This document shows, piece by piece, positions 26,544 to 28,717 of a stretch of DNA of 64,000 nt. Both the position numbers and the translations under genes were made by a program. Position 1 is the stretch's first letter. Every line of letters begins with the position of its first letter. The notes below the pieces were generated by a model. The model did no database searches. It saw nothing but the letters and a program-made list of their open reading frames with translations, and was not told where the DNA came from. The DNA comes from Escherichia virus TH22. Location: sequence record MT446396.1; one strand, 5' to 3'.

Positions 26544-26950
26544 TGAACGTTGAATATTATGTATATGCAGATTATGAAAATAATCCGTCTAAAGATGAAG
26601 ATAATCGTTTAGGTGTAGATGCTTTCGATTCCCCTGCTGCCGCGTGGCAATGGGTTGAAAGAACCGATATTCCTTACCGTTATATTGAAGTGGTCGACCA
26701 CGCAGGAAACAAGTATCCTAAGGAAGCATATGTTCCTTCTGGGAAGGTGAATTTCCTTCTGTTTGCAGGTGATAACTATTATCCACGCGGTGGGTATACC
26801 GATTTAATCGCTAAAGCATTTTCTGAAGATGAACTGCGTGAAATTATAGAACAGAACAGTAGAAAACCGATGTATGGTTCTGACCGTTTTGACTGGTGGC
26901 AAATTGTTAATGCCAATACCCATACTGTTGTTGATGAGGGTTGTTTATGA
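26543..26950 (+). CDS. Hypothetical protein
   Basis: 135-aa ORF, start overlaps previous stop (TAATG); no recognisable motif. Confidence 0.55.
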   Translation: MNVEYYVYADYENNPSKDEDNRLGVDAFDSPAAAWQWVERTDIPYRYIEVVDHAGNKYPKEAYVPSGKVNFLLFAGDNYYPRGGYTDLIAKAFSEDELREIIEQNSRKPMYGSDRFDWWQIVNANTHTVVDEGCL

Positions 26951-27423
26951 ATATTAAATTTGGACAGACTATCCCTAAAGGTTATGTTGTTGAAATTGAA
27001 ACCTGGGAAAATGACGGTGATAACTATAAAACCCAGACAATATTTGGTGTAGAAGAACAAGAAATCCAACAGTACAAATATATCCTAGAACTTTTCCATG
27101 GTTCGCATTGCAACAACCCGGATAAATGTGGTAATTCAGAATGGGACGTAGTTAAAGACTTTATTATCGCACACATTGAATCTGGTGTAAAATCTGGCCA
27201 ATTAACTCCTGAATTCATTAACAAAACACTTTGTATTGAAAATCTGGAAAACCTGGTTGAAGGTGGCAATGGCCAGGAATTTGAATTATTGTGTTCTCTC
27301 CAGGAATTGCTGGGCGAGCCGGTGGAATATGATAGCGTTTTGCGCGTAGTTTCGTGGGTAAAATTATACATCATCGAAGAAGAAATCCAAATACCAAACG
27401 TTAAAGCACTTGATATGCTTTAA
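26947..27423 (+). CDS. Hypothetical protein
   Basis: ATG at 26947 overlaps previous stop (ATGA); track ORF start at 26941 is a non-ATG codon. Confidence 0.55.
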   Translation: MNIKFGQTIPKGYVVEIETWENDGDNYKTQTIFGVEEQEIQQYKYILELFHGSHCNNPDKCGNSEWDVVKDFIIAHIESGVKSGQLTPEFINKTLCIENLENLVEGGNGQEFELLCSLQELLGEPVEYDSVLRVVSWVKLYIIEEEIQIPNVKALDML

Positions 27424-27501
27424 TAAAAACGCGTTATTATTAATAAGTACCCTCTATTACCAAAGGTTCTTCCCTCAAAGAGCCTTTCATAATAGAATTA
27501 A

Positions 27502-27575
27502 GGCCCTGTAGCTGGACGGTCAAGCGAGCGACTCATAATCGCTGGATGGTGGTTCGATTCCACCCAGGGCCACCA
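27502..27575 (+). tRNA. tRNA with anticodon CAT (Met, or Ile if lysidine-modified)
   Basis: Cloverleaf folds by hand: acceptor GGCCCTG/CAGGGCC, D-loop with GG, anticodon stem AGCGA/TCGCT, loop CTCATAA, T-arm GGTGG-TTCGATT-CCACC, encoded CCA. Confidence 0.85.
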
Positions 27576-27593
27576 AACTTATTTTAAATTATC

Positions 27594-27701
27594 ATGGCGA
27601 TAGGTATTGTAGATGCGGTTCGATTCCGTCCGGGGTAAGTGCCCTAGCATGCTTGGAGCATGAGTGACTTAATATTGGTGGTTCGAGTCCACCCCGCTAT
27701 G
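27594..27701 (+). ncRNA. Non-canonical tRNA-like element (two T-arm-like motifs)
   Basis: Contains GCGG-TTCGATT-CCGT and GGTGG-TTCGAGT-CCACC T-arm-like hairpins, but no 5' acceptor pairs at tRNA distance; could be a stable small RNA or decayed tRNA. Confidence 0.3.
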
Positions 27702-27709
27702 AACAAACA

Positions 27710-27785
27710 CGAGGCATAGCTCAGAAGGAAGAGCAAGGACCTTCTAAGTCCTAGGTCGTAGGTTCGATTCCTACTGTCTCGACCA
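27710..27785 (+). tRNA. tRNA-Arg (anticodon TCT)
   Basis: Acceptor CGAGGCA/TGTCTCG, D-arm GCTC...GAGC, anticodon stem AGGAC/GTCCT with loop CTTCTAA, T-arm GTAGG-TTCGATT-CCTAC, encoded CCA. Confidence 0.9.
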
Positions 27786-27958
27786 AACAAGAAACCGGGT
27801 CGCTACCGGTAAGTCGTCGGACTGAAGTTCCCTGTTTAAGGACTGGCATTAATAAATCTTTACGATTTGTTGATGTCCCCTTATATCACAGCTGAAACGG
27901 CGCACCTAATTAACGATTCGAGGAAATATCTTTGCCGTAAGCCGAGTAGCGTTTTTGA

Positions 27959-28050
27959 CGGAACGTTCGGATATGGTCGAGATATGGCCTTTTAAAAATA
28001 TTGAGTAGCGTCAACTACTTGATAACCGGGTTCAAATCCCGGCGTTTCGT
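27959..28050 (+). ncRNA. Non-canonical tRNA-like element
   Basis: Perfect T-arm CCGGG-TTCAAAT-CCCGG plus acceptor-like 3' strand pairing with CGGAACG 92 nt upstream, but no valid D or anticodon arms; internal hairpin GAGTAG-N6-CTACTT. Confidence 0.3.
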
Positions 28051-28100
28051 ACAAACACTTGCCTAGCAGGTGGAACCCCGACAAGGTTGCCACAAGGTAT

Positions 28101-28129
28101 AGCCCCTTCCGAAAGGTTGGGGCTTTTTT
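28101..28129 (+). terminator. Rho-independent terminator after tRNA region
   Basis: AGCCCC-loop-GGGGCT hairpin followed by TTTTTT; a TATAAATA motif follows at 28129-28136. Confidence 0.55.
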
Positions 28130-28162
28130 ATAAATATAACGTACCCATAACTAAGGAAATTT

Positions 28163-28717
28163 ATGAAACTTTTAAAATATCTAAGCTGGATTCTGTTAGT
28201 ACCACTGGATTTCATTTCAATGATTCTGGCTGTTATCCTTGCACCATTTGTAGTGCCGTTCCATAACAAAAAGACTGGTAAGCTTCCGTTCGGATTTGAC
28301 TGGATGATGACATACGATAATCCAATTGATGGTGACCGTGGTCATGTTAAACGCTGGGAAAAAATCAGAAAATGGCCGTTAGGCGTTTACTTCCAGCGAG
28401 TGGCCTGGCTCTGGCGAAACAAAGCCTACAATTTTGCTTATCATAAGCTGGGCCGCGATTGCGATTCTAAATTCCATTATAAAGGTAATCCTGATGTTGA
28501 ATCGGGCTCCCCGGATAAAGCTCACCATGGCTGGCTCTGGATGTGGAATGATAATGCATGGGGCGTGTTCGCTTCCGTACCTTATCTTAAAGTTGGTGGA
28601 ATCACCTTTTATCTGCGCGTGTATTGCGGTTGGAAGCTCAAAAGTCTTCTGTCCCGTCCTATCCCGAAAGCTATGTTAGCCTTTCATATCAATCCCTTCC
28701 GTTTTTATAAGAACTAA
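28163..28717 (+). CDS. Hypothetical membrane protein
   Basis: 184 aa, hydrophobic N-terminal segment; RBS GGAAATTTATG. Confidence 0.6.
   Translation: MKLLKYLSWILLVPLDFISMILAVILAPFVVPFHNKKTGKLPFGFDWMMTYDNPIDGDRGHVKRWEKIRKWPLGVYFQRVAWLWRNKAYNFAYHKLGRDCDSKFHYKGNPDVESGSPDKAHHGWLWMWNDNAWGVFASVPYLKVGGITFYLRVYCGWKLKSLLSRPIPKAMLAFHINPFRFYKN

Follow-up and report, generated by a model that had tools for sequence, protein, structure and literature searches.

The transfer RNA (tRNA) clusters of phages are usually read as toolkits for codon supply or against nucleases. The cluster of phage T4 also holds two RNAs that are not tRNAs, rnaC (species 1) and rnaD (species 2). rnaC is a demonstrated stable RNA from this cluster (PMC9697503, PMC3014915), and the literature has assigned no function to either RNA (PMC3014915, PMC9697503, PMC12685909) in fifty years. 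Here we describe an element of 108 nucleotides (nt) at positions 27594-27701, plus strand, of a 64,000-nt stretch of Escherichia virus TH22 (MT446396.1). The stretch, hereafter the window, comes from a T4-like phage and is its tRNA region. Comparison of sequences indicates that the element is a genuine, structured RNA gene rather than a broken tRNA. As far as sequence can tell, it is a new member of the “tRNA-framed stable RNA” kind, of which rnaC is the type, and is distinct in its second, internal T arm and its spread over two phage families.

The element and rnaC have the same frame. Both rnaC and rnaD are, like the element, small non-tRNA RNAs on the tRNA strand of a T4-type tRNA cluster. 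Furthermore, in rnaC as in the element, the two ends make up an acceptor-type stem of 7 positions, this stem adjoins a canonical T arm, and the body enclosed is not that of a tRNA. Neither RNA encodes CCA, and ACAAAC follows both. The rnaC stem (CGAUUCG/CGUUUCG, with a tandem U.U) changes from A-U to G-C in the distant homologs ZX13, KM16, KaAlpha, and NM4.3, and rnaC is far more conserved than tRNAs (95-99% identity in 679 of 747 phage records). The differences are that rnaC has one T arm, whereas the element has two and a closed inner minihelix, and that rnaC was found only in T4-like phages, whereas the element also occurs in N4-like podophages. rnaC also carries ACUUAAUA, an 8-mer shared with the element, at the same place relative to the T arm; its copies read UAA, UGA, or UUG there.

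The preliminary description of this locus had compared the element to the species 1 and 2 RNAs. The comparison stands as to kind, but not as to identity. Homology to rnaC or rnaD was rejected for lack of sequence similarity: the local alignment score is 14, below the shuffle mean of 15.6, and a covariance model of the element (R1, built from 11 copies) does not match T4 rnaC or rnaD. The true homologs of the T4 RNAs lie at 27787-28051 of the window.

The element folds into five conserved helices. These are an acceptor stem, an inner T arm (T1), two hairpins (HP2 and HP3), and an outer T arm (T2). Across 18 distinct sequences, 99.3% of cells in these helices are standard pairs, compared with 39-57% in slid controls, in which the 3' partners were shifted by 1-3 columns. 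Eight pairs are altered on both sides. The covariation score is 0.343, versus 0.016-0.078 for slid partners and a shuffle maximum of 0.163, and was reached in 0 of 500 shuffles. The consensus fold (-29.5 kcal/mol) lies within 1.6 kcal/mol of the minimum free energy structure (-31.1 kcal/mol). A further helix, P2, shows one-sided changes only and costs ~4 kcal/mol; we keep it as a tentative sixth helix.

The acceptor stem closes the whole element. It had been thought that no 5' acceptor strand could be paired and that only the 3' domain was tRNA-like. We find instead that ATGGCG (27594-27599) pairs with CGCTAT (27695-27700), with compensatory changes in relatives, and that the second T loop sits in a covarying internal hairpin. 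All six pairs are 100% paired in the 18 distinct sequences, and three are altered on both sides; the variants among phages are AUGGCG/CGCUAU, ACGGCG/CGCUGU, ACAGCG/CGCUGU, GACGGG/CCCGUU, and GGUGGG/CCCACU. The paired ends and the canonical T arm thus make up the “top half” of a tRNA, in which T1, HP2, and HP3 replace the D and anticodon arms.

Both T arms that the preliminary description had pointed out are present, at 27677-27693 (GGTGG-TTCGAGT-CCACC) and within 27615-27629 (GGTTCGATTCC at 27617-27627, from a sequence reading of 27300-28300). The motif GGTTCRANTCC occurs five times in the window, always inside 27551-28039, where the shuffle expectation is 0.21 and five were reached in 0 of 100 shuffles. 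The five sites belong to tRNA(CAT), tRNA-Arg, the element (two), and rnaC (one). T2 equals the T arm of the adjacent tRNA(CAT) at 18 of 19 positions. In T1, pair 23:35 changes from C-G to G-C between two clades and pair 22:36 is G-U, A-U, or G-C, while the loop pattern UUCRAUY is maintained.

The two inner hairpins are conserved in the same manner. In N4-like copies, HP2 takes the form GUGGA/GUAGA-GUAA-UCCAC/UCUAC, and its G39.U54 becomes A-U in PhAPEC5. HP3 varies from A-U to G-C at pair 58:70 and is G-C or G-U at pair 60:68. Its loop is 5 nt long, and hence it is not a canonical D loop or D arm. The PhAPEC5 copy (L023 2905-3016; L numbers denote loci) has G-to-A changes at columns 16 (GUAGAU to AUAGAU) and 39 (CCGG to CCAG) of alignment A3 together, and the column 16 change could reflect a tertiary contact.

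Conserved single-stranded junctions flank the inner hairpins. Invariant columns make up 39 of 62 unpaired columns versus 25 of 50 paired columns. Such an enrichment is expected of an RNA that makes tertiary or ligand contacts. The GG of the 5' junction could act as a stemless D-loop analog for the outer T loop. UAG follows both the outer and the inner “acceptor 5' strands,” as does U8-A9-G10 in tRNA, with CUG at the outer stem in N4-like copies. The inner order of T arm, short closed hairpin, and GG-loop hairpin is that of the T arm, acceptor, and D arm of a tRNA opened at the anticodon. As a separate observation, the conserved GACUUAAUA varies solely from UAA to UAG (27669-27671; alignment A3 column 83), in seven N4-like copies.

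Table 1. Coordinates of the element, its parts, its neighbors in the window, and related RNAs in other phages.
Feature	Coordinates	Strand	Basis or remark
tRNA(CAT), CCA encoded, upstream of element	27502-27575	+	ARAGORN, Rfam
Acceptor-type stem, 5' strand ATGGCG and A27600	27594-27600	+	pairs with 27695-27700; A27600 opposite C27694
5' junction UAGGUAUUGUAGAU	27601-27614	+	invariant columns GGU and (G)UAGAU
Helix P2, tentative	27603-27606 with 27673-27676	+	all sequences compatible
Inner T arm (T1) GCGG-UUCGAUU-CCGU, 4-base-pair stem, 7-nt T loop	27615-27629	+	100% paired
HP2, short closed “acceptor-like” hairpin, G.U and GGGU-AAGU-GCCC	27632-27645	+	3 pairs altered on both sides
HP3 CAUGC-UUGGA-GCAUG, D-arm-like, invariant UUGG loop	27648-27662	+	100% paired
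3' junction AGUGACUUAAUAUU	27663-27676	+	near-invariant single-stranded GACUUA(A/G)UA; varies at one position only
Outer canonical T arm (T2) GGUGG-UUCGAGU-CCACC	27677-27693	+	supported helix
C27694 mismatch, acceptor 3' strand CGCUAU (27695-27700), discriminator G27701	27694-27701	+	sequence and alignment
tRNA-Arg(TCT), downstream of element	27710-27785	+	ARAGORN, Rfam
rnaD (species 2) homolog	~27787-27906	+	alignment to T4 NC_000866, ~90% or better
rnaC (species 1) homolog	27913-28051	+	alignment to T4 NC_000866, ~90% or better
67-nt and 124-nt Gamaleyavirus RNAs	L010 1205-1275, 1277-1400		also L008, L011, L012, L017, L020, L023, L070, L106, L126
Streptomyces-phage RNA	L454 5977-6073 (YDN12); L547, L548, L549 601-697	- (L454)	two compensatory changes, inner T stem

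The element occurs in two unrelated phage families. A BLAST search with a 130-nt segment returned 39 phage records in three groups: VR5, VR25, TH15, and TH40 at 100% or 98.5% identity; the Kanagawavirus phages PEi20, PEi26, and KLB31 with the Karamvirus CkP1 at 95-98%; and 28 records of Gamaleyavirus, N4-like podophages such as G7C, EC1-UPM, pSb-1, and PhAPEC5/7, at 76-81%. Homology starts at base 1 of the element and stops within a few bases of its last, and the element is annotated in only one of the 39 records. R1 matches the window at exactly 27594-27701 and gives exactly one strong match per genome (112-138 bits); its other matches are weak, and are to ordinary or tandem tRNAs. In total, we found the element at 19 distinct loci, one copy per genome, in four groups, the T4-like Gaprivervirus, Kanagawavirus, and Karamvirus and the N4-like Gamaleyavirus.

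Further scans extended the sample within the same two phage groups, T4-like and N4-like. The stricter IMG/VR patterns contributed L014, L017, L020, and L023 only. A permissive pattern, CTAGCNTGCTTGGNGNANG, was run against metagenome and genome collections; three of the 240 matches listed were real, all on Gamaleyavirus-like metagenome contigs. A looser T1-to-CTAGC pattern matched chiefly tandem tRNAs, at no more than 25 bits. Loci matching TGCTTGG...GACTTA were left out of the copy screening. The element was not matched in 5,426 complete E. coli genomes, and absence from bacterial genomes refers to these alone, as it cannot be derived from the CTAGCNTGCTTGGNGNANG scan. We found no paper describing the element or two-T-arm tRNA-like phage RNAs, and among the papers found on stable small RNAs in infected cells, none deals with VR5-like or G7C-like phages.

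The element is more conserved than the tRNAs beside it. Over 27400-28200, the nearest records, Escherichia phages TH15, VR25, and VR5, are 96-97% identical to the window and 100% identical over the element. Across the three T4-like genera, identity is 93.5-98% for the element, 68-70% for tRNA(CAT), and 63-78% for tRNA-Arg. G7C, EC1-UPM, and HK2 retain the element without any tRNA gene. The single high-scoring copy, the sharp edges, the identity above that of tRNAs, and the retention without tRNAs thus argue for a gene and not debris.

The element is not a tRNA by any of the searches applied. The preliminary description held that it does not fold as one, and this is borne out: default ARAGORN on this region of the window calls only tRNA(CAT) and tRNA-Arg(TCT), and Rfam at its gathering threshold reports the same two flanking tRNAs and nothing else. 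At E<=10, the Rfam tRNA model (RF00005) aligns to the 3' half of the element only, with 16.1 bits against a gathering score of 29, and the G7C copy reaches 17.4 bits. A permissive E-value search fitted the element to no Rfam family. When ARAGORN is forced or relaxed, it returns mutually contradictory folds with an “intron” or a 4-base anticodon, and the tRNAscan-SE annotation of relatives (UE-S5a and kin) skips the element (PMC11927229). When every helix that all sequences can form was enumerated, no D arm plus anticodon arm (5-base-pair stem, 7-nt loop) turned up at standard spacing. This agrees with the earlier view that these arms cannot be built, and the body consists of T1, HP2, and HP3 instead. 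What the element does have of a tRNA is an acceptor stem (six pairs and a 7:66 mismatch) abutting a 5-base-pair T stem with a UUCRANY loop.

The element behaves as a cassette within tRNA arrays. It lies on the tRNA strand, 3 nt past the CCA of the preceding tRNA in PEi20, KLB31, and CkP1 and 18 nt past it in the window. In MN04, PhAPEC2, and SP18, a tRNA-Asn(GTT) gene fills the exact slot of the element (L001 2004-2078; L002 1673-1747), between flanks that are 100% (tRNA(CAT)) and 91% (tRNA-Arg) identical to those in the window. We therefore conclude that the element swaps in and out in the manner of a tRNA cassette. The Gamaleyavirus copies lie upstream of a terminator, in a long stretch without credible genes.

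Three systems outside the T4 cluster resemble parts of this architecture. The tRNA-like module of the Y RNA YrlA consists of a T stem-loop, a short acceptor-like stem-loop, and a D-like stem-loop, and the Mycobacterium smegmatis YrlA is cut by RNase P (PMC4201824). T1, HP2, and HP3 run in the same order. Unlike YrlA, however, the element lacks the Ro60-binding motif GNCGAAN0-1G within its 108 nt, its ends close an acceptor stem rather than a Ro60-binding stem, and HP3 is not a canonical D arm. The Rfam YrlA model (RF02553) scores 12.5-14.5 bits against a gathering score of 69 without matching the inner domain, and this weak match is a dimer-type artifact of T2 and the D arm of tRNA-Arg. No Ro60 gene is among the annotated neighbors in 12 loci.

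The tRNA-like domain of transfer-messenger RNA (tmRNA) also joins an acceptor and a T arm without a D stem, has a GG single strand after the acceptor 5' strand, and has the remainder of the molecule inserted in place of the anticodon arm. In contrast to tmRNA, the element has neither a tag reading frame nor pseudoknots, and G3.U70 is not conserved. ARAGORN made no credible tmRNA call, and the Rfam tmRNA matches were to bare T loops only, at 5-9 bits. The design principle of the element is that of the engineered tRNA scaffold, in which a foreign RNA body in a tRNA frame is processed and protected like a tRNA in E. coli (PMC3753655). That scaffold is artificial, retains the D arm, and carries the foreign RNA at the anticodon stem.

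We consider it fairly probable that the element is the gene for a structured, non-decoding tRNA mimic of ~108 nt, which would be processed like a tRNA to a stable RNA and act in trans. It would be transcribed together with the tRNA cluster. Cleavage by RNase P would fall at 27593/27594, 5' maturation of tRNA-Arg would release the 3' trailer for trimming by exonucleases, and the tRNA frame would confer stability on the product. Handling of this sort is suggested because the element is positioned in tRNA arrays, because it swaps a slot with tRNA-Asn, and because rnaC has the same frame. Within the mature RNA, GG elements may cap the T loops, the HP3 loop serving T1 and the 5' GGU serving T2, such that two tRNA-like elbows would be displayed. 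In three dimensions, we infer an open and a closed tRNA top half, with a candidate GG partner for the T loop in each. The RNA might then act as a decoy or titrator of a host or phage factor that recognizes the tRNA top half or elbow; this is the weakest step, and we hold it with low confidence.

Several observations weigh against this proposal. The sampled diversity consists of two clades, T4-like and N4-like, with minor variants, and most double changes reflect one deep inherited split. Double changes are also seen within clades, at acceptor pairs 2 and 3, in HP2 (G-C/A-U), in T1 (G-U/A-U/G-C), and at G39.U54, which becomes A-U. The shuffle z-score of folding energy is -0.08 for the window copy and -2.0 for G7C, a weak and uninformative signal, and with that value for the window copy we dropped thermodynamic stability as evidence. 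The element encodes no CCA, as the bases after G27701 are AACAAACA, and the 7:66 mismatch is conserved; either feature could hinder RNase P or the CCA-adding enzyme in recognizing the RNA. No protein gene among the annotated neighbors co-occurs with the element across both phage families, and none points to a target. Finally, the fold, its conservation, and its placement are read from the alignments, whereas we infer processing from established tRNA biology, and the trans action is a proposal.

An alternative, which we regard as improbable, is that the element is a cis-acting processing “punctuation,” a tRNA-shaped fold whose sole role would be to recruit RNase P or RNase E, so that adjacent tRNAs and mRNAs are parted, and whose excised piece is functionless. 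An acceptor stem with a T arm is the substrate determinant of RNase P (PMC4201824 for YrlA). The element is also always inside co-transcribed arrays, and a Shine-Dalgarno sequence and start codon follow within ~20-30 nt in PEi20, KLB31, CkP1, and L014. However, a minihelix would suffice for this purpose, whereas T1, HP2, HP3, and ~28 nt of junctions are conserved more strictly than the stems. The downstream neighbor also varies (tRNA-Arg, different open reading frames, other RNAs), and conservation of 93-98% across genera exceeds that of real tRNAs.

Somewhat more doubtful is a tRNA-binding RNA, in which the two T loops would interdigitate as a flat platform on a tRNA elbow, as in the L1 stalk, RNase P, and T-box stem I, while GACUUAAUA would touch another part of the tRNA. 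The strict conservation of two T loops within a single small RNA is consistent with this model, as is a conserved single-stranded 9-mer free for pairing, and the double T-loop is a universal docking module for tRNA elbows elsewhere (PMC3664808). Known platforms, however, use pentanucleotide T-loops in bulges or apical loops of one helix stack and not two tRNA-type T arms. In the element, as in tRNA, a separate candidate GG partner is available to each T loop, and no complementary tRNA target was identified.

Two further readings, both very unlikely, are contradicted by the tests run in this analysis. That the element is a functionless, decaying remnant of a tRNA or tandem tRNA pair, as the preliminary description had allowed for a single tRNA, would fit the ~20-25 bits that R1 gives on tandem tRNAs (layout T arm, acceptor strands, D arm, T arm), the T2 match to tRNA(CAT), and the place of tRNA-Asn that the element takes in an otherwise conserved slot, but the compensatory changes in five helices, the conservation above functional tRNAs of the same genomes, and the sharply bounded presence in two unrelated phage families, including tRNA-less genomes, argue otherwise; a remnant spread by very recent transfer is at odds with 75% identity with pairing maintained. 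That it is an aminoacylatable, translation-active RNA, whether an aberrant tRNA or a mini tmRNA-like one, would draw on the acceptor stem and T arm, on the G3.U70 alanine identity pair in four of five T4-like copies (pair 3:109), and on the sole variant of ACU-UAA in N4-like copies being ACU-UAG, which keeps a stop, but there is no conserved anticodon stem-loop, tRNA model scores are under gathering, CCA is not encoded, no tmRNA call by ARAGORN is credible, and tRNAscan-SE as used for UE-S5a and relatives gave no call (PMC11927229).

Two hints of coding or charging were followed and rejected. G3.U70 occurs in 4 of the 18 distinct sequences, with A-U in CkP1 and C-G or U-A in all 14 N4-like copies. 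The stop-codon or mini-tmRNA idea, drawn from UAA/UAG and ACUUAAUA, fails as distant rnaC homologs have UUG there (UAA/UGA/UUG across rnaC).

The matches of the model to tandem tRNAs and the 18/19 agreement between T2 and tRNA(CAT) make it plausible that the element derives from a tRNA dimer.

We suggest that the non-decoding tRNA mimic proposed here bears on how phage tRNA clusters are read. The element shows that tRNA-framed RNAs comprise more than one family, that cassettes of this kind, which can swap with tRNA genes, pass between unrelated phage families, and that constraint on them is tighter than on the adjacent tRNAs. It is also a compact and well-defined object, with five helices and two T loops in 108 nt, and is carried by the culturable coliphages VR5, VR25, and G7C; the function of the class is thus open to experiment.

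The plan of one acceptor stem and two T arms appears, from sequence comparison, to be one that recurs in unrelated phages, such as YDN12. Pairs of T-loop motifs at a spacing of 40-58 nt, closer than tandem tRNAs allow, are common in the viral contigs of IMG/VR, where a scan yielded at least 120 loci (L427-L546). Of the matches listed, 62 candidates remained once redundancy and cases with the first T arm inside a predicted tRNA were removed. We compared the heptamer after the second T stem with the heptamer upstream of the first T arm, and found 7/7 acceptor-type pairing bracketing both T arms in 19 of the 62, versus 2-7 in displaced controls, a roughly four-fold excess. An Rfam scan of 13 candidates reported neighboring tRNAs only. 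It is conceivable, although unlikely, that such RNAs form a previously unrecognized class, with the element as its best-sampled member, extending from enterobacterial T4-like and N4-like phages to Streptomyces phages, as double tRNA mimics that would neutralize tRNA-directed host activity (immunity nucleases, tRNA-sensing factors) or capture tRNA elbows.

In the Streptomyces phages YDN12, Geonosis, and Abt2graduatex2, an unannotated 97-nt RNA of the same plan lies outside tRNA clusters. Its order is acceptor, T arm, closed 6-base-pair hairpin, small hairpin, linker, T arm, acceptor. Of the 134 raw IMG/VR matches listed, 51 consist of a canonical tRNA and, close behind it, a short element that is not a tRNA but has a T arm of its own. 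False positives of the T-loop motif come from coding repeats of the collagen-like Gly-X-Y type (GGTGCTCAAGGTTCAAGTCC...) in the viral contigs L466, L469, L472, and L533.

Just upstream of the element, Gamaleyavirus genomes have two more unannotated RNAs, ~67 and ~124 nt long, each with a frame of acceptor and T arm and an encoded CCA. They show compensatory changes (TACCAGT/ACTGGTA versus TATCAGT/ACTGATA), and an inner hairpin is compensated in L011. The 67-nt RNA and the T4-like form of the element have UAGGUA and GCAUGAGUG in common.

Two other candidates were set aside. A small open reading frame (MAIGIVDAVRFRPG) loses its ATG in PEi20, CkP1, and all N4-like copies. The throat-1 RNA model (RF03110) matches the G7C copy (L003 2470-2587) at 7.5 bits (E = 6.3), which we treat as chance, and does not match the window copy; the alignment to the G7C copy lines up the unpaired GGU, UAG, UAAGAC, and UAAUA.

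In CkP1 (L005 1328-1997), the 3' half of tRNA(CAT) stands directly after the open reading frame CkP1_0150 and directly before the element, and ARAGORN calls no tRNA. CkP1_0150 has sub-threshold matches to NUMOD3 and Phage_endo_I, and an insertion of the homing-endonuclease type may have split the tRNA(CAT) gene. HNH endonuclease genes lie near the element in G7C and ZQ2.

In the window, the acceptor and anticodon stem-loop of tRNA(CAT) resemble those of T4 tRNA-Ile and, we presume, those of E. coli ileX. This gene is probably a tRNA-Ile2 (with lysidine, reading AUA) rather than a tRNA-Met, and the KLB31 equivalent is annotated as tRNA-Ile2. The open reading frame upstream of the cluster (26941-27423) has no Pfam match. 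After rnaC, a hairpin at 28101-28130 (plus strand; AGCCCCUUCC-GAAA-GGUUGGGGCU) is followed by UUUUUU and was missed by a consensus scan owing to an internal 2x2 mismatch. It is probably the terminator of the cluster, and PhAPEC2 has a terminator annotated at the equivalent position. The open reading frame at 28163-28717 (plus strand), which lies downstream of the RNA cluster, matches DUF7338 over its full length (E = 1.4e-62).

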